From: an uncultured bacterium
GTDB lineage: Bacteria; Zhuqueibacterota; QNDG01; DSAB01
Assembly: GCA_964650065.1 (NCBI GenBank)
Contig: CAZYTI010000001.1
Span: forward strand, 1-26,002
Reading direction: 5' to 3'
Length of the DNA stretch: 26,002 nucleotides
Shown here: piece by piece, positions 1 through 22,475 of the stretch
Numbering within the stretch: position 1 is the stretch's first letter
Layout of the letters: every line of letters begins with the position of its first letter
Made by a program: the position numbers and the translations under genes
Notes under the pieces: model-generated
What the model saw: only the letters and a program-made list of their open reading frames with translations
The model's database searches: none
Told to the model about the DNA's origin: nothing

Positions 1-305
1 TATTTAAAGAAGACATGCAGGCATCGGTTCACCTTGAATTAAAACAGAATGCCCCCAATCCGTTTAATCCGCTGACCATGATTCGTTACCAGTTGGGAGA
101 ACCCAGTCGAGTTAGACTGACCGTCTACAACCTATTGGGCCAGGTGGTTCGAAGACTCCTGGACACAGAGCAGGAACAAGGATATCATACCATTCTATGG
201 GACGGTCGGAATGACCGAGGGCAACCCATGGGTACGGGGATCTATTTTTGTTCCTTAGAAACCGACAAACAGGTTTTCACCCAAAAACTTTCATTGATTC
301 GATAA
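1..305 (+). CDS. 3' end of a secreted protein: FlgD Ig-like / T9SS type A-like C-terminal sorting domain (partial, runs off left edge)
   Basis: Frame is open to the window edge (F-K-E-D before the ATG at 15); motif QNAPNPFNP...YNLLGQVVRRL...WDGRNDRGQ...GIYF is typical of this domain. Confidence 0.85.
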   Translation, partial: FKEDMQASVHLELKQNAPNPFNPLTMIRYQLGEPSRVRLTVYNLLGQVVRRLLDTEQEQGYHTILWDGRNDRGQPMGTGIYFCSLETDKQVFTQKLSLIR

Positions 306-331
306 CCACTTTCGGGCATGAAAAGAAGATA

Positions 332-3300
332 ATGATCTGGCTCATTAAAAATATGCGGACACTCCACAAACTGGTCTTGATCAGTATTTCTTTGATCCTG
401 ACACATCCGATTCATGCGGCTTTTCTTAGAAATGTTCCTCAAAAAGTCATCCAACCCGACGGGACAATCTTTAACTGCTTCGCATCAGGAGACGAATTTC
501 ACAACTGGTTACACGATAAAGACGGTTTCACAATCATCCAGGATCCGGTGACCGGATATTACGTATATGCAAAAAAAATAAATCAAAATCTCCATCCCAC
601 TCCATATATTGCAGGGAAGGCGAATCCCACTGTCATGCTCGTTGAACACGGCGTAAATACTGGTCGCCAAACAATTCGGGAGAGAAGGCAAAACTATATC
701 GAGACCTTACGTCTGAATGATAGTTACATGGCACCGACCCATGGCACATTGAATAATATCGTCATCTTTATACGTTTCAACGATCAGGGAGAATTCACCG
801 AACCATTGTCATTTTACGATGGTCAGTTCAATACCGACACCAATTCCATGAAAGGATACTACCAAGAAGCGTCCTATCAGACCCTGAGCATCGAATCCCA
901 ATTCTTTCCGGAATCCTTGAGCGATCAACTCGTGTCCTATCAGGACGCCCATCCCCGGAGCTATTATCGGCCTTACAACGTGGTAACAAATCCCAACGGG
1001 TACCAGAATGATGAGGAATCGAGAATCCGGGAACATACATTGTTGAAAAATGCACTCAATAGTGTTGCTCACCAGATCCCTGCCAATCTCGATCTGGATC
1101 TCGACAATGACGGTCTCGTCGACAACGTGTGTTTTATCATTCAAGGTGAAGCAGAAGGATGGAGTGATTTGCTCTGGCCGCACATGTGGGTTTTGTGGTC
1201 ATTTGATCCTCATTACGGTGATGGCACGGGAAACGTGATGATAAACGGTTCCATCGTATGGACGTATAATTTCAATCTCTCCGCTTTTTCCTCCAGCGGT
1301 CCAGGCGTGTTATGTCATGAAATGTTCCATTCCCTGGGTGCACCCGACTTATACCATTACACCAATAATGGTATATCACCCGTAGGCCCCTGGGACCTGA
1401 TGGAGAACGACCAGGATCCACCCCAGCATATGAGCAGTTACATGAAATACCGATACGGAGGCTGGATCGATAACATACCCGAAATTACAGCCGATGGCGT
1501 TTACAACCTCAGCCCCCTGACATCAGCAACGGGCAACTGCTACAGAATCGCATCCCCCAATTCAGGATCCGAATATTTCGTTGTGGAATACAGGAAAAAA
1601 GAGGGAACGTTCGAATCGAGTCTGCCAGGCTCCGGTCTCCTCGTTTATCGCATCAATACTGCTGAAGATGGTGATGGGAATGCGGATGGCCCTCCCGACG
1701 AAGTATATATCTATCGGCCGGGAGGAACGCCCACACAAAATGGGAACATCTACAATGCAAATTTTTCGTCGACTGTCGGCAGAACTCAAATCAACGATAT
1801 AACGGATCCATCACCATTTCTATCGGATGGCTCTCCCGGGGGATTAACCATTTCCAATATCGGCAGTGCAGGCAGTACCATTCAGTTCACCCTTGGGGGT
1901 TCATATCCTTCAATATCGACCGGTGGAGAACCCTTTTCTCAAACACTCAGTATCGATGAGGCTGACTCCCAGGTCCTCACCATTACAAACACGGGCGATC
2001 CTGGCTCCCTGTTAACCTACACCATTTCGTTCCAATCACCACCCCCAGGCAATAATCTTAGCAAAGCCATGGGGATTGGGGGCTCAACATTCGAAGGCAC
2101 ACCCAGCCTTTACCGACCAGGGACCACCTTTGACATCGTTTTCACAATCACAAACAGCAGTACAGATGAAGAATGGCTGGATGGGTCAAGTCTCAACGTC
2201 CCCTCCGGAGTCACGGTAAACAGCTCGACCCATTTTGTCGGTGGAAGCGGGGGCAATTTGGAAACGAACAATAACACCGGAGAAGGGGTGACTGTGACCT
2301 GGTCCGATGTAAACGGAGGTTTTGGCAATGTATTGGAAGGGGAAAGTGCCGTGGCAACGGTCAACATGACTGTGTCCGGTGGTTTATCGGGAGACATCAA
2401 TTTAGATTGGACGTTGTCTGGAGACAACTATGGAAGCACGCCCCACAATGTTTCCGGATCCGTCACACTGACGCATAGCTGGTTGATACCTTCGTCCGGC
2501 TCGGGCATGTGTGTCTACGGGGAGACCGATGACATTTCTCTGAATTTCAACGCCACCGGCTTTACTGCCGGCAGCTATAACGGAACAGTCATCATTACCC
2601 ACAACAGCGGCGATCCAGTCAATATACCCATCAGTTTAACCGTCACCGATAACACCGTAAAACCACCGCCTTCCTTAATATCCCTCCAATCTGTAAACGA
2701 TACAAACTTGCAGCTTACTTTTTCTGAGGTCGAAGGGGCGACTGCATACAACATCTACAGATCCACCACAGCGTCTTTCATTCCAGACATCATGGATGGA
2801 TCGAACCGTGTAGCCACCGGCATTACCGATGAGGATCCTATATCTGACGGAGTTCAGTGGACCGACCATGAAAATGTCGTGGGCGATCCATCGACGAACT
2901 ATTTTTATACCCTGACGACAGTCGGGTCGAGTGAGAGTGATCCATCCGAAAAGTTCGGAGAGTTCGATTTCGATCTGATCACCACGGGGACCACTGATTT
3001 CAACGAAATCGCCCTGCCCCTAATCACATCTGAGATCACCAATGCCCAGCATCTCATGGAAGCCATCACCGGGTGCAATTCCACGGCTCAGTGGAATTCC
3101 GGCATACAGGGTTACGAGCAGTACATTCCAGGGATACCACCTACCAACTTTACCGTCGAGATGGGATATCCCTATTATGTCAACGTAACCGGCAATACCG
3201 GTTTTACACTCCTGGGGAAGATAGCCACACCCTCATTCAATTTGATCACCACGCCGACAACGGATTTCAATGAAATTGTGCTTCCCCTGACGAAAACGGA

Positions 3301-4132
3301 AATTACCAAAGCATCTCAGCTCATGAACGACATTCCCAACTGTAACAGTGCCGCCTATTGGGATGCCTCAATCCAGGGCTACCAGCAGTATATCCCGGGC
3401 ATACCTCCCACCGATTTTGACGTTCGTGTCGGGTATCCCTACTATGTGAATGTCACGGCCCAGGTCTCCTGGCCCCAGGGTGGAACGCTGAAATACCGGA
3501 ACAGGCCCATTTCCCCCGTTCAGGATGGGGCAGGGATTCGGGCGCCCCATTGTGCCTGGGGACGATTCGATCTAAATGTAAATTTCAACATAGAAGATGT
3601 TCATTTTTCTGCATTCATCACGTCTCGAACCCCAGAAAAACTCACCGAACAATCCCCCGGATGCTCGATACCGGGAGGATACTGGATCGTCCAGTGCAGC
3701 TCATTTCCGTCACCATGGAAAGCCGGAGATACCCTCCATGTTGATGTATTGGACAAGACCGGACGAATTCTCTCGGAAGTCGAAGTCGAACTGTCCTATG
3801 AACCTGCCGATGAGGCGGAATCGGTTCTTGTGAACCCTTCCCCCTTGAGTCCTAACAGTTTCGAGTTGCAACAGAATATGCCCAATCCGTTTAACAGTTC
3901 AACCACACTCTTTTTCACTACAATTGAGGAGTGTCATGTTAGAATCATTGTTTACAACATGAAAGGACAAGAAGTTCGAAGTCTTCTGGACGAAATAAAA
4001 ACCGGCGGTTATCACAGCGTGGTCTGGAATGGGAGGGACAACAATCAGCATGCCGTGGACAGCGGTGTGTATTTCATACAAATGGAAGCGGCACTTTATA
4101 GCGAGAATATAAAAGTATTACTCCTTCAATAG
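332..4132 (+). CDS. Secreted M6-family (immune inhibitor A-like) zinc metalloprotease with Ig-like/FN3 modules, a tandem 89-aa repeat and a C-terminal FlgD-Ig sorting domain
   Basis: Signal peptide after M at 332/353; QPDG...GDEFHNW propeptide; HEMFHSLGAPDLY zinc motif; WDLM Met-turn; EYFVVEYR; C-terminal QNMPNPFN...WNGRD. The ORF-track start at 248 overlaps the upstream gene and is unlikely. Confidence 0.9.
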   Translation: MIWLIKNMRTLHKLVLISISLILTHPIHAAFLRNVPQKVIQPDGTIFNCFASGDEFHNWLHDKDGFTIIQDPVTGYYVYAKKINQNLHPTPYIAGKANPTVMLVEHGVNTGRQTIRERRQNYIETLRLNDSYMAPTHGTLNNIVIFIRFNDQGEFTEPLSFYDGQFNTDTNSMKGYYQEASYQTLSIESQFFPESLSDQLVSYQDAHPRSYYRPYNVVTNPNGYQNDEESRIREHTLLKNALNSVAHQIPANLDLDLDNDGLVDNVCFIIQGEAEGWSDLLWPHMWVLWSFDPHYGDGTGNVMINGSIVWTYNFNLSAFSSSGPGVLCHEMFHSLGAPDLYHYTNNGISPVGPWDLMENDQDPPQHMSSYMKYRYGGWIDNIPEITADGVYNLSPLTSATGNCYRIASPNSGSEYFVVEYRKKEGTFESSLPGSGLLVYRINTAEDGDGNADGPPDEVYIYRPGGTPTQNGNIYNANFSSTVGRTQINDITDPSPFLSDGSPGGLTISNIGSAGSTIQFTLGGSYPSISTGGEPFSQTLSIDEADSQVLTITNTGDPGSLLTYTISFQSPPPGNNLSKAMGIGGSTFEGTPSLYRPGTTFDIVFTITNSSTDEEWLDGSSLNVPSGVTVNSSTHFVGGSGGNLETNNNTGEGVTVTWSDVNGGFGNVLEGESAVATVNMTVSGGLSGDINLDWTLSGDNYGSTPHNVSGSVTLTHSWLIPSSGSGMCVYGETDDISLNFNATGFTAGSYNGTVIITHNSGDPVNIPISLTVTDNTVKPPPSLISLQSVNDTNLQLTFSEVEGATAYNIYRSTTASFIPDIMDGSNRVATGITDEDPISDGVQWTDHENVVGDPSTNYFYTLTTVGSSESDPSEKFGEFDFDLITTGTTDFNEIALPLITSEITNAQHLMEAITGCNSTAQWNSGIQGYEQYIPGIPPTNFTVEMGYPYYVNVTGNTGFTLLGKIATPSFNLITTPTTDFNEIVLPLTKTEITKASQLMNDIPNCNSAAYWDASIQGYQQYIPGIPPTDFDVRVGYPYYVNVTAQVSWPQGGTLKYRNRPISPVQDGAGIRAPHCAWGRFDLNVNFNIEDVHFSAFITSRTPEKLTEQSPGCSIPGGYWIVQCSSFPSPWKAGDTLHVDVLDKTGRILSEVEVELSYEPADEAESVLVNPSPLSPNSFELQQNMPNPFNSSTTLFFTTIEECHVRIIVYNMKGQEVRSLLDEIKTGGYHSVVWNGRDNNQHAVDSGVYFIQMEAALYSENIKVLLLQ
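2969..3457 (+). repeat. Intragenic tandem duplication, 267-bp period (2969-3190 and 3236-3457)
   Basis: FDLITTGTTDFNEIALPL...QGYEQYIPGIPPTNF...GYPYYVNVT versus FNLITTPTTDFNEIVLPL...QGYQQYIPGIPPTDF...GYPYYVNVT. Confidence 0.9.
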
Positions 4133-12272: not shown

Positions 12273-12344
12273 ACCTGTGTCCCAAGTTGTACTTGGGACA
12301 CCACTAACAATAGAAGCTTCGCTTCTAATCTCTAACAGACAACT
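12273..12344. repeat. 72-bp double-hairpin (REP/MITE-like) repeat, copy 1
   Basis: 60 bp identical to 15530-15589 and 70/72 overall; hairpins GTGTCCCAAGT-TGT-ACTTGGGACAC and TAGAAGC-TTC-GCTTCTA. Confidence 0.92.
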
Positions 12345-12438
12345 TTTCCAGTTGAAATAAATTCTATTCATTAACAATGATACATCGGAAAAAACCAAAT
12401 GCATTCAAATAATTTATCGAAAGATAATTGACCAAAAC

Positions 12439-15417
12439 TCACCTGATCATCAACAATTTACCCACATAGGTATTTTCACGGGTTTGCACTTTGACGATAT
12501 ACATCCCCGATGTCACCATATGCCCGGCATCATCGCTCCCATTCCAAGGAACATGATGGCGTCCAGGTTCCAACATCTCATCCACCAATATCCGAATCTG
12601 TTGACCAAGGATATTTTTGATTTCCATGTGAACATGGGATCTTTGGGGTAAATCATAGATAAACATCGTCTGTGAATTAAAAGGATTGGGCGTATTGGGA
12701 TAGACTTTAAATAAAAGGGGCAGTCGCACCTCCTCCACACCGGTTTCTGACCCATTGGATCGTCCCGGGGTTCCCCCCACCTGTTCACTGGCCCGCCAAC
12801 TGCCCGGGAGGACATTATCCTTGGACGCATCGATCAGCTCCAGAGACGGACCGTCGCCATCGGGAGGGGGCGGCCAGGGTGCTGTATCATCATAATTCAC
12901 AGAATCGATCCTGTGGTTTTCGCCATCAAAGAGACACAATGCTTCTCCTTCGTTGGCCAGTTTGCCGCTGGCCGATTGAAACACCTGAAATTCCTGATTG
13001 CGATATGTCGAACTGTTCTTGGCAATGATGATATATTCTCCACCCCTTATGGTCGTCCCGGAGGGAAAGATGAAACCGATTCCCCTGGTGAACCGGTAAT
13101 GGGATAGATCGATATCCGCGTCTCCTCGATTGAAAAGTTCAACAAATTCATAATTGTCATCACTGCCCTGATGAAAGGATGAGGGATTGTAATGGATCTC
13201 ATTGATGACGATGGGAGACAGATCTACCCGTTCAAAAATGGCCTTTACAGAATCAGAGCCTGATAAAATGACGGTGAGCGTATCCGATGAGCCATCCGAG
13301 TATCCCTCCCATCTCATAAATTGACTTCCGTAATCCGGTTTGGCTATTAACCGGACAGGGGCATGTTTAAAATACAGCCCCGTAAATAGACTGTCCCGCA
13401 GATCCATATCACCGATATTCACCCGACCCGATCCGGATCCCGACATACGTACCGTGAGGGTTGTGATGCCCTGAAGAGAGAGGGTCTCATTGATATGCTG
13501 CCGGACAAAATCGGGACGCTCCCTGGCAAAGACCCTCAATATTTCAATTTCCCTCTCCCAGTAGTCCAGATCCGCAATGGCACCCCAACGATCAATATGC
13601 CGCTCCATTTCAGGTTCGATCTGTGCCCTGATCCCATCGATGATATGGATGACCCGCTCCGGATTGAACGTCAGGTTGAGATGGCTGGCGAACCGTTGTG
13701 CAAATGCATGCTTAAATTCGAGATTATCCAATAAACGTGAAAGCAGAATGGATGCCTCACCTTGATTGAGTGCCCATTCCAGGGAATTCGTCCTGTACTG
13801 TTGCTCCCCCTCCCGCGTCTCTCCCCCGAATCCCCAGTCCAAATCGAAGAGCATCCAGCGCCACCTGCCCTGGGGACCCCGCTCCCGCCAGTATTTGGTG
13901 TTCCGGTGCAGCCAGTCATGGTTACGATAATAAATCTCAGCAATCTGGTAATTCATGAATTCATCGACATCCATCTGGGTCTTGACATACGCATAATTAT
14001 CAGGCAGGGCCATATCGTTGGATTTCACAAAATCAATCAAATTCTCAAAATGAGATGGATCGCCTGCACCGACCTCTCCGATATTTTCCAGTAAATCGAC
14101 CTCATTGGGATCGATCCCGTAGTTGCTCTCTGGATAGTGCTCATTCATTTTTTCGCGGATATTGTACAATCCCCAGTATTGACCATTGAGAAACATGATG
14201 GCCGGTTGATAGGCCTGATAATCGACATCCATCTGATCCACGGTTAACTTTTGCATCATGGCATCCCTGAAAAAAGTCATGTTAAAATCATTGCTGGAAC
14301 ACCGCAATATCCATCTTCTGAAGGTATCGATGGACTTGGTGGGAAACATGGGATATCGGACCTGGTGGGTACCGTATTTATCTCTTGTGAATATGGAAAA
14401 AGCCTTTTGGCGTATCTGTCTGCCAAAGGCGCCTCCGAAAATTTTGATGCCTGCATCCATTTTGAATCCCAGATGACCCTCTTGTTCATAGAATTCGTAG
14501 CTTATCGGTCTCTCCCAATCATGCCAAAAATTGGCATGGGGGTCAAAAGGAGGATCGGCTCTGATGGAATCGTTCACACAAATACCTACAGTAATGCCCA
14601 CGGTATCATCAAATAAGAAATCCGGATCCGTGGCAATGGAAATGATGGGTAAGGTCGATGATTCATCGATGAAAAATGTGTGGGTCACGACACGGCTCGG
14701 CAGAAAAGCGGGTGCATCGGCCCTGGCTCGGATCACCGTTGTTTTATCAATTTGAATCGGAATCGTGTATTCATCCGAGGATTGTTTCGGGACTGATCCA
14801 TCTGTTGTGTATCGAATCGATCCATGGGGCGTGCAAGTGAGGGTTACCGATTGTAGACCACTGTAAAATCCTCCCTGTACTGAAAACTCAGGTTCCATCA
14901 CCCTGATCGGCTCATTGACTCCTCGTGTCCCATTCGGTCCGGAAAGGGTGGATTCTACAAAATACATCCACTCCGATTCACCATCGGGATACCGTCCAAA
15001 ACTGATATCGCTCAGTTGACTATTGTAAGTGATAAAATCGATGACCCTGCCATCGGGACGAAAAAGGCCGATTTCTTCGGATGGGCAGTTCAATTTAAAA
15101 TTGGTATGGTTCTCTCGATTCGACCCATCCGCCCAAACAACCAGAAATCCTCTGGGATCGATCACCATTCCCTCGGGAATCCGCCATTTCATCGGCTTAT
15201 TCAAGTTATCGGTCAAGAACAACCCGCCCAGTTGTACAGGAGCGTCTCCTCGATTATAGAGCTCGATCCAGTCCGGGAAATCGGACAAATCGGGAGCCAT
15301 GATCGCATATGAATTCGACGCCATAAACTCATTGATGACGATGGCATCATATTCGTCTGCCATTAAACACGGGACAATCCAGAATACGAATAGCAGACCC
15401 ATTCTTTTTTTTGACAT
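12439..15417 (-). CDS. Secreted CotH kinase family protein with lamin-tail domains, a chitobiase/FN3-associated domain and a C-terminal FlgD-Ig domain
   Basis: Signal peptide; VINEFMA/DWIELYN and VINEIHYNP/EFVELFN (LTD); IRYTTDGSVP; NGQYWGLYNIREK, DWLHRNTK, RWMLFDLDWGF (CotH); NTPNPFN...WNGSD. Confidence 0.9.
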   Translation of the reverse strand: MSKKRMGLLFVFWIVPCLMADEYDAIVINEFMASNSYAIMAPDLSDFPDWIELYNRGDAPVQLGGLFLTDNLNKPMKWRIPEGMVIDPRGFLVVWADGSNRENHTNFKLNCPSEEIGLFRPDGRVIDFITYNSQLSDISFGRYPDGESEWMYFVESTLSGPNGTRGVNEPIRVMEPEFSVQGGFYSGLQSVTLTCTPHGSIRYTTDGSVPKQSSDEYTIPIQIDKTTVIRARADAPAFLPSRVVTHTFFIDESSTLPIISIATDPDFLFDDTVGITVGICVNDSIRADPPFDPHANFWHDWERPISYEFYEQEGHLGFKMDAGIKIFGGAFGRQIRQKAFSIFTRDKYGTHQVRYPMFPTKSIDTFRRWILRCSSNDFNMTFFRDAMMQKLTVDQMDVDYQAYQPAIMFLNGQYWGLYNIREKMNEHYPESNYGIDPNEVDLLENIGEVGAGDPSHFENLIDFVKSNDMALPDNYAYVKTQMDVDEFMNYQIAEIYYRNHDWLHRNTKYWRERGPQGRWRWMLFDLDWGFGGETREGEQQYRTNSLEWALNQGEASILLSRLLDNLEFKHAFAQRFASHLNLTFNPERVIHIIDGIRAQIEPEMERHIDRWGAIADLDYWEREIEILRVFARERPDFVRQHINETLSLQGITTLTVRMSGSGSGRVNIGDMDLRDSLFTGLYFKHAPVRLIAKPDYGSQFMRWEGYSDGSSDTLTVILSGSDSVKAIFERVDLSPIVINEIHYNPSSFHQGSDDNYEFVELFNRGDADIDLSHYRFTRGIGFIFPSGTTIRGGEYIIIAKNSSTYRNQEFQVFQSASGKLANEGEALCLFDGENHRIDSVNYDDTAPWPPPPDGDGPSLELIDASKDNVLPGSWRASEQVGGTPGRSNGSETGVEEVRLPLLFKVYPNTPNPFNSQTMFIYDLPQRSHVHMEIKNILGQQIRILVDEMLEPGRHHVPWNGSDDAGHMVTSGMYIVKVQTRENTYVGKLLMIR

Positions 15418-15529: not shown

Positions 15530-15601
15530 ACCTGTGTCCCAAGTTGTACTTGGGACACCACTAACAATAGAAGCTTCGCTTCTAATCTCCAACAGGCAAC
15601 T
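15530..15601. repeat. 72-bp double-hairpin (REP/MITE-like) repeat, copy 2
   Basis: Direct repeat of 12273-12344. Confidence 0.92.
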
Positions 15602-15621
15602 CTCCCCGTAAAAAAATCCTA

Positions 15622-19444: not shown

Positions 19445-20722
19445 TTATTTATTATTCATTTCTTTCTGAATTAATTCCAAATGCTCTCGAGCATCCTCAT
19501 TCTCAGGATCAAGCTCTACAGCTCTGTTAACGGCAACCAAAGCATTTTGATAATTCTTCATCTTCCGGTGAACGGCAGCCAGGACATTCCACGTCCGTGC
19601 ATCTGGTTTCAACTCTACGACCTTTTTGGCCGATTGCAGGGCACTCTCGAGATTTTGCTCTTTATCTGCCCAGAACCGGGCATACCTGGTCAATAGATTG
19701 GCATCTTCCATATTCTTTAGGATGTACGCCGTCCCATAAGCCTCAAGAGCCTCACTTTTTTTATTATTCTTCAGGAACAAATTAGCCGCATTCTGACGAT
19801 AACCACCAGATTCGGGAGCCAGTTTGATGAGCTTCTTGGCGTACCGTTCCCCTTCATCAAGATTTTTACCGGTTTTAATATAATACCGAACAATATTGTT
19901 TAAAATCGAAGGATTCTCCGGATACATCTTTTTGAGGTCTGCATAAAAGGCGTCGCTTTTTTTAGATACCGGCAGCCTTAAATAAAAGTTAGCGAGATCC
20001 GAATAGACCCCGTCGATCAAAGCACTCTTGGGAAATTCGGCCCGAAACGCTTCTAGCCCCTTTGTAGATCGCTTGGAGTACATATCGCCATACCCCGCCG
20101 AATAGTTCGCAGCCTCGTAAAGATTAATCGCTTTCGCTTGGAACGTGACATCAATGGTTTTTGCTTCATCCGCACGTTCGAGCACTTTCTGACTCATCGC
20201 AGCGGCCTTCTCCATCTGGTACATTTGAGAATGCTTATTCGCTAGAGCGAACATCTTTTCAAGATTATCTGGATCTTGATCGTGCTGCGCTTTTATCGAA
20301 GCATAGGTATCGATGCCCTTCAGGGATCCCTTTACTCTTTCAAAATAGTTATCAGGATCTCTTTTATAACCTGCAATGATATCAGACAAGGAACCATCGG
20401 GCTTTACAATAGCCACTGAGGGATGGCCTCCGATCTCGAATTTCTCCTCAATCTCTTCTCCATTCCCTTCACCCGGAATGGCATGAATGGGAACGAAATT
20501 TTCATGGATAAACTGAACGTATTTGTCGTTTCCGAAAAATTGCTGACCCAGCAATACACACGAGCCTCAGGTGCGGGACCATGCAAAGATGAGCACATCC
20601 TTTTCGGCATTCTCCGCTTCGACCATGGCCTCATCAAGTGAGCCCGTAAACCACTGTGTCCCCTGTCCGAAGACTGAGGAAACAAAAAGCAGAAGTAGTG
20701 AAACTAAAATCCATTTTTTCAT
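19445..20722 (-). CDS. Secreted thioredoxin-fold + TPR protein, predicted selenoprotein (425 aa, Sec at codon 52, UxxC motif)
   Basis: GGAGG RBS and ATG at 20722; signal peptide MKKWILVSLLLLFVSSVFG; W..SLDEAM..A....K.VLI.AWSRT-[TGA 20569-20567]-GSC; same frame as the 369-aa track ORF; SECIS-like hairpin; C-terminal TPR repeats. Confidence 0.85.
20539..20555 (-). promoter_or_regulatory. Bacterial SECIS-like hairpin
   Basis: mRNA UGA-GGCUCGUGUGU-AUUGCUG-GGU-CAGCAAU: 7-bp stem with a GGU loop at +19 to +21 after the UGA. Confidence 0.75.
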
Positions 20723-20808
20723 GACTGCCTCCAAAATTTAATGAGTTGAGTTATAATATACTAAAATGGTAGGGATTATCCAAAATAATTATTTTATGAA
20801 ACATTTCA

Positions 20809-21168
20809 ATGTGGTTCTCTGTACAAATAAAAGAATGTTCAAGACCATCATTGAAGAGAGGTACACATGAGGAAGAACCACTTCACTTTCCACAAAAAAA
20901 TCTGGATATGATCATTATGGTCTATGTCCTCCATCACCTCGACAAACCAATAAAATTTCTTGAAAATTTAAAACCGTATCTAAAACCTGACGCCCCATTG
21001 GTGATCATTGAACAAAATACAAACAGGGAGAGGGCTCATCCTCCCTCTTTCATGACGAAAAAGCAGATCTTAGAAACCATAGATAATACAGCCTTTGAAC
21101 TTTTAAGGACAGAGACTTTCTTACCTCGAGACACCATCTATATCTATAAATTAAAAACCACCTCTTAA
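20809..21168 (+). pseudogene. C-terminal half of a class I SAM-dependent methyltransferase (5'-truncated)
   Basis: EEPLHFPQKNLDMIIMVYVLHHLDKP..FL..LK..LKP...LVIIE; the N-terminal glycine-rich SAM-binding motif is absent. Confidence 0.7.
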
Positions 21169-21364: not shown

Positions 21365-21604
21365 TCATTCATTAATATGATCCCACCCTTTACATCCATG
21401 ACCCGCTGCTCTTTTTTTCTCGTTTCGTTTGGGATATCCTCTACAGACATCTGGTCGTAATTCATAGATTCTACATTTGTACTTTTCTCTATTTGGTAGT
21501 TTCCTTATAATAGGTTCTGCAGCAAGTCCCACATTGTTTACAGATAAATCCAGTTGGATGCTTGAAAGAGGTTTTACTTTTATTTTTTTTATTTTGTTCA
21601 ACAA
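21365..21604 (-). pseudogene. Fragment of a YkgJ family cysteine-cluster (CxxCxxCC, UPF0153) protein
   Basis: C-terminal motif CRIYELRPDVCRGYP present; N-terminal CxxCxxCC absent. Confidence 0.6.
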
Positions 21605-21653
21605 TGCTCATAAAATGTGTAAATATTCAATGTTTTAGGTTTAGTTTTTGACC

Positions 21654-21789: not shown

Positions 21790-22191
21790 CTACAGATACT
21801 TACTAATAAATGCCTTCGGGGTAATAATTTCTATTCCCTTGTATCCGGTTATTTTCAATAAATGTTTATCGCCAGTAACAATTATTTTGGAATTACTGGA
21901 TAAAGCGCATGAAATAAATTTTTCATCATCAGGGTCAGCACATATGTTTTGGGAAAATATTATTGGTTGGAAGAATTCAGCATTGATAGCTATTAAATCT
22001 AGGATGTCACGAATATCAATTGATTTAAATTGCCAGGAAAGTCTTTCTGCCACTCTGCGATACTCATCGAATATTTCTTTTGATAGTATCAATTTAAATC
22101 TTCCATCTCTCCAACTTTGTAGTATTTGATAAGGCGGGCCAGTAAAGAAGATTCCAGAAATTAATACATTTGTATCAATAATTATTTTCAA
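21790..22191 (-). CDS. PIN-domain toxin (VapC-like, PIN family putative TA toxin)
   Basis: IIIDTNVLISG, DPDDEKFISCAL, IVTGDKHLL; TTG start overlapping the antitoxin TGA. Confidence 0.92.
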   Translation of the reverse strand: MKIIIDTNVLISGIFFTGPPYQILQSWRDGRFKLILSKEIFDEYRRVAERLSWQFKSIDIRDILDLIAINAEFFQPIIFSQNICADPDDEKFISCALSSNSKIIVTGDKHLLKITGYKGIEIITPKAFISKYL

Positions 22192-22451
22192 TGTTTGTCC
22201 CGAACTTTCGAAATTGCGGAAGAGATATCAGATTTCTTTAGACCGGCCACTTTAGCTTGTTTGCGAGCCCTCTTTATTAGACCATCAAATTCAGCAATAG
22301 ATGGTGGGGATATTGTCTTTAATATTACGACATCCTTTTCTCCAATAACTAAAAACTTTGAACCTGATTCCAATCCGAGTTTATTACGAATTTCTTCAGG
22401 TATAACTATCTGGCCTTTTGATGACATTTTAGTTGTCGATACAGTTGACAT
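22188..22451 (-). CDS. AbrB/MazE/SpoVT family antitoxin
   Basis: TKMSSKGQIVIPEEIRNKLGL..G motif; GAGGAAG RBS before the ATG at 22451. Confidence 0.92.
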   Translation of the reverse strand: MSTVSTTKMSSKGQIVIPEEIRNKLGLESGSKFLVIGEKDVVILKTISPPSIAEFDGLIKRARKQAKVAGLKKSDISSAISKVRDKH

Positions 22452-22475
22452 GATGACCTTCCTCAATATGATTGT

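Follow-up and report, generated by a model that had tools for sequence, protein, structure and literature searches.

In a stretch of 26,002 nucleotides from an uncultured bacterium (contig CAZYTI010000001.1 of assembly GCA_964650065.1; "the window" denotes this whole stretch), a 17-nt hairpin at positions 20555-20539 of the minus strand is, judging from sequence comparisons, very probably a functional bacterial selenocysteine insertion sequence (bSECIS) element. It lies in a gene for a predicted secreted selenoprotein, in which a thioredoxin-like domain is joined to a tetratricopeptide repeat (TPR) domain. An original prediction, made from the window alone, had placed a UGA codon and a SECIS hairpin at positions 20539-20569, and these coordinates proved exact, to the base, on the minus strand. 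In codons, this strand reads ...GCA TGG TCC CGC ACC TGA GGC TCG TGT GTA TTG CTG GGT CAG CAA TTT TTC... The hairpin core, UUGCUG-GGU-CAGCAA, begins 12 nt past the UGA, and A20555 and U20539 provide a seventh pair; with the U of the UGA counted as nt 1, the hairpin covers nt 15-31 and the GGU loop nt 22-24 (i.e., +19 to +21 after the UGA). The hairpin encodes (V)LLGQQ(F), with the loop GGU as the Gly codon. Perfect hairpins with 7 bp and a 3-nt loop occur 11 times in the 26-kb window (approx. 1 per 2.4 kb), and only the one at 20555-20539 is located 11 nt after a UGA, which in this case is the in-frame one.

We also considered TGA codons elsewhere in the window. No other in-frame TGA with at least 40 open codons upstream and at least 60 downstream was coding-like. 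As TGA is the stop codon of 9 of the 19 long open reading frames (ORFs) in the window, the code is standard, and a genome-wide reassignment of TGA (codes 4 or 25) was rejected.

UGA and hairpin in homologous genes

Homologous genes were collected in two scans of GTDB species genomes, which yielded 40 loci; alignments were used as queries, and the second scan was seeded by alignment A5, alignment A4 being too diverse. A genome scan with a single protein query found no relatives, so that an alignment query was required, and a metagenome scan found one partial locus only. All 37 copies in the resulting alignment (A6) carry TGA at the position of the selenocysteine (Sec) codon, with the hairpin 12 nt downstream in every one, and a Cys at +3 of the Sec (U) is invariant among them. 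The metagenome-assembled genomes (MAGs) with UGA copies are labelled Aminicenantes, Acidobacteriota, Ignavibacteria, Bacteroidota, Calditrichaeota and Zixibacteria, in addition to unclassified (marine) MAGs. The 11-nt spacer is the same in 37 of the 38 TGA-bearing copies of this hairpin type. The 38th copy (locus L131, positions 1477-1518), which was left out of A6, keeps both TGA and hairpin with 6 extra nt between them (18 nt instead of 12, the loop being 24 nt from the UGA) and has the motif U-G-S-S-A-C (UxxxxC), with the Cys at +5; the distance between UGA and hairpin is thus not absolutely fixed.

Tandem paralogues were observed in Aminicenantes MAGs, with three at locus L005 (positions 1544, 3154 and 4820) and two each at L011, L012 and L014; every copy has UGA and SECIS, and the loop-closing pair varies between G-C and C-G. 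The nearest genome, a MAG whose RtcB is 81% identical, also bears a copy of the window gene, with 48% identity.

In the output of gene callers, the window gene is broken in two: a 51-aa ORF is followed by a "TPR protein" of 369 aa whose start codon is a TTG inside the hairpin. Three database homologues with 48-60% identity are split at the identical point, and an exhaustive, profile-free search with the C-terminal fragment returned 66 clusters at E <= 1e-30. We inspected 47 truncated products, namely P0001-P0004 and 43 representatives of these clusters; all begin with [M/L]-L-[D/G/V/E]-[Q/E/K]-Q, a beginning that marks the same split, while P0028 is the only full-length Cys-form among the cluster representatives. 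Both NCBI and the Joint Genome Institute (JGI) name the truncated forms "tetratricopeptide repeat protein".

That every gene caller makes the same split is what one would see if the UGA were a true stop, giving a 51-aa secreted peptide and a 369-aa TPR protein initiated at TTG or CTG, with the hairpin and a GAGG used for translational coupling or regulation; the UGA-GG indeed makes a Shine-Dalgarno-like GAGG approx. 10 nt before the TTG. Such a split, however, would sever the thioredoxin fold between a beta-strand and the active-site helix and part U from C in the UxxC motif. The Pfam match to Thioredoxin_7 (PF13899; 34.1 bits against a cut-off of 27, E 3e-8) is continuous over the site, and so is the AlphaFold model of the Cys-form P0028 (pLDDT, i.e., predicted local distance difference test, 92.3), in which a strand (45-51) is followed by C55-x-x-C58 and a helix (56-66), the remainder being an all-helical solenoid that matches TPR structures. 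In addition, the frame and the 12-nt distance are kept in 37 of 38 copies, full-length Cys homologues exist, and the putative start is often CTG. A true stop at this position is therefore very unlikely.

Selection at the RNA level

The stem of 7 bp in the window is 8 bp in most relatives. Across the 37 aligned sequences, 94.3% of the 296 cells of the 8-bp helix are paired, as compared to 15-66% when the partner strand is slid by 1-3 columns. Changes on both sides were found in 5 of the 8 pairs. The outer core pair is C-G in 23 sequences and U-A in 13, the loop-closing pair is G-C in 26 and C-G in 7, the 7th pair is A-U, G-U or G-C, and the 8th is A-U in 20, U-A in 6 and G-U in 2; one core pair changes once from U-A to G-U. 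None of 500 shuffles reached the observed covariation score (37 sequences; a subset of 21 was also analysed), and RNAalifold independently yielded the same helix. The original prediction had pointed to stem covariation among TGA-bearing homologues and to loss of the stem as its refutation; the stem is both kept and compensated in these 37 copies.

A covariance model built from the first 21 copies recovered the 16 copies on which it had not been trained (E 5e-13 to 0.018) and matched the window hairpin with 46.6 bits (E 2.7e-11), its sole match in the window. Neither the loci of the Cys homologues nor unrelated control loci (approx. 95 kb) gave a match to this model.

As the hairpin falls where helix alpha-1 begins, within a conserved motif of the protein, and as 4 of the 8 pairs in the 21-sequence set and 3 of 8 in the larger set are invariant, one could suppose that selection acts only on the peptide LLGQQF and that the hairpin is a by-product with no function in the RNA. 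Several changes are not explained by selection on the peptide. First, the stem switches between TTG..CAA and CTG..CAG, which is synonymous on both sides, in the GGU-loop as well as the GAU-loop subgroup, and also between copies with an identical peptide (L113 and L116 versus L114). Second, in the swap of the inner pair, a change from Q to E is coupled with a synonymous change of the Leu codon from CTG to CTC, and pairing is restored. Third, the 8th base pair couples I/V with Y and K/E with F, so that these residue pairs track the pairing. Moreover, low third-position entropy (0-0.3 bit) is confined to codons +5, +7 and +8, i.e., to hairpin codons; in other parts of the domain, 3-4 codons are used for each of the invariant residues Gly and Leu.

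The element leaves an imprint on the protein. All Sec forms carry L-L-[G/D/V/E]-[Q/E/K]-Q, and Cys forms do not; the arms encode L-L and Q/E/K-Q, and the loop codon specifies Gly in the window gene, with Asp, Val or Glu found among relatives. Since the hairpin is inside the reading frame, the peptide x-L-L-G-Q-Q-F is fixed where the helix after the active site begins, and the position of the CxxC between strand and helix in the P0028 model indicates that the residues encoded by the hairpin are the first two turns of this helix. The suggestion that the hairpin may explain the atypical residues VLLGQQ after the motif is thereby supported by three features, namely the restriction of the motif to Sec forms, its frozen codons and its position after the CxxC.

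Family-wide, the loop is G-N-Y (GGU, GAU, GAC, GUU, GUC or GGC), with Asp (GAY) as the commonest loop codon. Its first G (G22) is invariant in 37 of 37 copies and is also implied by the G-initial codons (D/G/V/E) of the 47 truncated products. Overall, in the sequences compared, the RNA-level pattern is coherent despite few and nested events.

Sec and Cys forms of the gene

In tblastn alignments, the TGA aligns with TGC or TGT in 8 distant loci and in P0028. The 8 distant Cys homologues (WCPPC or WCPYC; Nannocystaceae, Halieaceae, Planctomycetota and others) have neither LLGQQ nor complementarity at the site. The close Cys-form (P0028, locus L112, positions 1439-1474) reads TGC CAA GGC TGC GAT CTC CTG AGC CGG CAG and retains LL..QFF; its stem CTCCTG-AGC-CGGCAG has decayed and contains a C.C mismatch and a G.U pair, the loop being AGC. 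It is likely a Sec-to-Cys conversion, and the decay fits relaxed constraint. A second refutation allowed for at the outset, the same hairpin in Cys homologues, is not what these sequences contain. That the motif is missing from all distant Cys homologues and the hairpin decayed in the close one adds to the evidence against selection on the peptide alone, which we regard as extremely unlikely.

Two distant TGA-bearing homologues (L016, positions 2313-2352, and L017, positions 3097-3136), found in a Neomarinimicrobiota-labelled MAG and in an unclassified one, have a different hairpin, GUUCGGC-UGGAU-GCUGAAC, again with a G-C to A-U compensatory change; the loop begins 16-17 nt past the UGA, as compared to 18 nt in the window type. 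Thus, as far as the collected sequences go, a G-loop hairpin accompanies every UGA, and the Cys forms have none, or a decayed one in the case of the close P0028.

Downstream hairpins can stimulate stop-codon read-through in general. This counts for the explanation that ribosomes pass the UGA by inserting near-cognate Trp or Cys and not selenocysteine, the hairpin being a SelB-independent stimulator; moreover, the window and the examined loci gave no genes of the Sec machinery. Against it, the site is that of the nucleophilic Cys of CxxC, a classic Sec/Cys pair, and Trp or Gly at this position would kill the redox centre. The hairpin, with its G-first loop, also fits both the bSECIS consensus (PMC13188914) and the geometry of the Escherichia coli fdhF element (PMC8659212). 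Read-through of this kind appears extremely improbable.

A pseudogene or a sequencing or assembly error behind the TGA, for which the sole point is that the window is a metagenomic contig, is refuted by the comparative data and practically untenable: the gene with its TGA is identical in two other JGI assemblies (at least three with this one), TGA and hairpin stay the same across 4 independent runs of marine or sediment metagenomes, in whose contigs 14 other nearby sites vary, the TGA recurs in the 37 homologous copies from different phyla, and the frame past it is open for 373 codons with conserved domains. Among these strains, 14 variable sites were found in the 283 nt around the UGA and none in the 31-nt stretch of UGA and hairpin; as approx. 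1.5 would be expected in 31 nt, the zero gives only weak support.

Proposed mechanism and points that weigh against it

If the hairpin is a bSECIS, it would, with UGA52 in the ribosomal A site, start 11 nt downstream, at the mRNA entrance, as in the E. coli paradigm. There it would be bound by SelB, loaded with GTP and Sec-tRNA(Sec), through the C-terminal domain of this factor, and the UGA would then be decoded as selenocysteine and not as stop. The predicted product, 425 aa long, is an exported oxidoreductase that combines a thioredoxin fold, bearing the active site U-G-S-C, with a TPR domain. Both the binding of SelB and the actual insertion of Sec at UGA52 are inferred by analogy.

Several observations count against the hairpin being a bSECIS. 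The folding energy of the single sequence is modest: the 21-nt hairpin alone folds at -6.3 kcal/mol (z = -2.8; equalled by 3 of 200 dinucleotide shuffles), and contexts of 40-63 nt have z scores of approx. -0.6 (-0.58 for 63 nt). The fold predicted downstream of the UGA is hence recovered for the hairpin itself, while the longer contexts are unremarkable. Forty nt from the UGA fold at -8.2 kcal/mol, so that the outcome relative to the bSECIS cut-off of <= -7.5 kcal/mol depends on the stretch chosen. The case consequently rests on the comparison with related sequences, and here the compensatory events are few and phylogenetically nested, for which reason the shuffle statistics overstate their independence. 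Searched against Rfam at the gathering threshold, the window gave no match; a local search with permissive settings returned only a chance snoRNA match (E = 3.1). No selA, selB, selC or selD was found in the window or in the examined loci, and a search of the window and 41 loci for tRNA genes came back empty. As for the RNA, relatives have G, A or U at position 23 and U or C at position 24, so that G23 is not a family-wide feature, and the bulged U17, a SelB contact in E. coli, is missing in the window, where the helix is continuous and U17 is paired with A29; this pair is U-A in 35 of 37 copies.

The gene, its product and other features of the window

The features of the gene are listed in Table 1. 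In homologues L001 and L002, a lipobox-like ...ACGGG stands in place of the signal-peptide type of the window protein. The only solved structure matched by sequence to the N-terminal domain is 2KUC, a putative disulphide isomerase (E 1.4e-5, query residues 9-110), which has a thioredoxin-like domain as in the window protein but is a stand-alone domain of 130 residues solved without a TPR part, whereas the window protein joins the domain to TPR. A Foldseek comparison of the P0028 model with the PDB was dominated by TPR solenoids and gave nothing for the thioredoxin domain.

Table 1. Coordinates of the UGA codon, the hairpin and the gene that contains them (window positions)
Feature	Positions	Strand	Basis
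Read-through coding sequence, 425 codons (ATG 20722-20720, Sec-UGA as codon 52, TAA 19447-19445)	19445..20722	minus	Translation
Putative ribosome-binding site GGAGG, 5 nt upstream of the ATG	20728..20732	minus	Sequence read
Predicted N-terminal signal peptide MKKWILVSLLLLFVSSVFG	20666..20722	minus	Inferred from hydrophobic N-terminus
Thioredoxin_7 domain (thioredoxin fold), residues 25-108, spanning the UGA	20399..20650	minus	Pfam PF13899
Redox motif U-G-S-C (UxxC), UGA at its first position	20558..20569	minus	Translation
In-frame UGA, predicted Sec codon (U52)	20569-20567	minus	Aligned with first Cys of CxxC in Cys homologues
Spacer from UGA to hairpin base, 11 nt	20556..20566	minus	Sequence read
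Predicted SECIS hairpin A-UUGCUG-GGU-CAGCAA-U, 17 nt	20539..20555	minus	Fold, covariation and covariance model
Hairpin 5' arm AUUGCUG	20555-20549	minus	
Hairpin loop GGU	20548-20546	minus	
Hairpin 3' arm CAGCAAU	20545-20539	minus	
TTG Leu codon, first in the 5' arm; false start of the 369-aa "TPR protein" of gene callers	20552..20554	minus	ORF list
C-terminal TPR repeat region, approx. residues 258-416	19475..19951	minus	Pfam and NCBIfam TPR matches

Near the gene, positions 20809-21168 of the plus strand encode only the C-terminal half of a class-I S-adenosylmethionine (SAM) methyltransferase domain (profile positions approx. 52-125), apparently the remnant of a truncated gene that is divergent from the selenoprotein gene. 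At 21365-21611 on the minus strand, a CxxCxxCC gene (PF03692, YkgJ-like) is apparently frameshifted, with an N-terminal piece ("FICKQCGTCC") and a C-terminal piece in two overlapping ORFs of different frames. Positions 21790-22466 of the minus strand hold a toxin-antitoxin pair, in which a MazE/AbrB-type antitoxin (22188-22466) overlaps a PIN_3 toxin (21790-22191) by 4 nt.

Two very large secreted proteins with a FlgD_ig-type C-terminal domain are encoded at 248-4132 and 12439-15417, and one window protein with this ending combines CotH, LTD, Fn3_assoc and CHB_HEX_C. A neighbour of homologue L002 has a faint Por_Secre_tail match together with FlgD_ig. This may be compatible with a type-IX-secretion-like sorting signal. 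Finally, an 85-nt direct repeat (92% identical; 12273-12357 and 15530-15614) holds two perfect hairpins, GTGTCCCAAGT-TGT-ACTTGGGACAC and TAGAAGC-TTC-GCTTCTA; each copy lies just past a stop on the minus strand, one that of a MacB/FtsX-like gene and the other that of a CotH/LTD gene, and the repeat could be a terminator or a repetitive extragenic palindromic (REP)-like intergenic element.

Implications

If the UGA is decoded as proposed, dozens of 50%-identity clusters are stored as truncated TPR proteins with a false start inside the SECIS stem, the real products being predicted exported selenoenzymes. The family would also be a clean natural example of a coding-region RNA element that dictates protein sequence: the loop codon would force Gly, Asp or Val into the active-site helix, and stem pairing would couple the Leu codon with Q/E/K, I/V with Y, and K/E with F. 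As a natural mutational series of a minimal SECIS with fdhF spacing and no bulged U, it could inform work on SelB-SECIS specificity, and such a minimal bulge-less element could guide the design of short SECIS tags for recombinant selenoproteins.

More tentatively, and with a confidence that falls a little short of calling it probable, we propose that these genes make up a large exported Thioredoxin_7-TPR UGxC selenoprotein family that is absent from PMC9312934, PMC13188914 and NCBIfam, is recorded as truncated "TPR protein", and uses a bulge-less G-N-Y SECIS with a SelB code unlike that of E. coli. If true, such a SECIS implies recognition by SelB that differs from the E. coli reliance on bulged U17 and G23/U24. 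None of the NCBIfam selenoprotein models reaches its cut-off on the window protein, and the family tables of PMC9312934 and PMC13188914 contain no Thioredoxin_7 plus TPR UxxC family, the sole Thioredoxin_7 entry being a PDZ protein with CxxU. A literature search found nothing relevant on a TPR-fused UxxC selenoprotein or on Sec use in Aminicenantes.

Comparison with known selenocysteine systems

The minimal SECIS of E. coli is a 17-nt stem-loop (nt 15-31) located 11 nt from the UGA, with the bulged U17, G23 and U24 as critical bases (PMC8659212). The original prediction had given the fdhF element as UGA + 12 nt + GUUGCA-GGU-CUGCAC, and the region of codon 140 in NC_000913.3 confirms it, with TGA CACGGCCCATCG GTTGCA GGT CTGCAC; the 12 nt after the UGA and the GGU at +19 to +21 are the same in fdhF and the window. 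The two elements share their placement within the coding sequence directly 3' of the Sec-UGA, the 11-nt gap, the 17-nt stem-loop and the positions of G23 and U24. They differ in that fdhF has a GGUC tetraloop closed by A21-U26, whereas the window has a GGU triloop closed by G21-C25; in that the window family has no conserved lower helix including the UGA; in that only G22 of the loop is invariant among relatives of the window gene; and in the host protein, which is a formate dehydrogenase in one case and a thioredoxin-like protein in the other. The proposed likeness to fdhF geometry therefore stands for the spacing and for the position of the GGU, while GGU as a conserved feature gives way to G-N-Y and the bulged U17 has no counterpart. 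As this bulge is missing and the family loop is G-N-Y, we file the element as a bSECIS that would work like that of fdhF, and not as strictly "fdhF-type".

In the general bSECIS model (bSECISearch, Zhang and Gladyshev 2005, as given in PMC13188914), the loop has 3-9 nt, the upper stem 4-16 bp and the UGA-loop distance 16-37 nt, at least one of the two leading loop nucleotides is G (most often as GG or GU), and the minimum free energy is <= -7.5 kcal/mol. The window hairpin agrees with it in its 3-nt loop, its stem of 7-8 bp, its leading G, the 18 nt between UGA and loop and the location of the stem-loop within the ORF; it is at the minimal end of every range, and its energy is borderline.

With the bacterial thioredoxin-fold UxxC selenoproteins (e.g., the "thiol:disulfide interchange protein", PF13098, and the Trx, DsbA-like and DsbG-like selenoproteins; PMC9312934, PMC13188914), the window protein shares the predicted use of Sec for the N-terminal Cys of CxxC, the existence of Cys homologues and a SECIS in the ORF. 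It differs from them in its architecture, i.e., Thioredoxin_7 (PF13899) with a long TPR solenoid and a predicted signal peptide. Overall, the mechanism of Sec recoding appears to be that of the standard bacterial system and leaves the existing picture as it was; it is the family itself that appears to have gone unrecognised and to be systematically mis-annotated.

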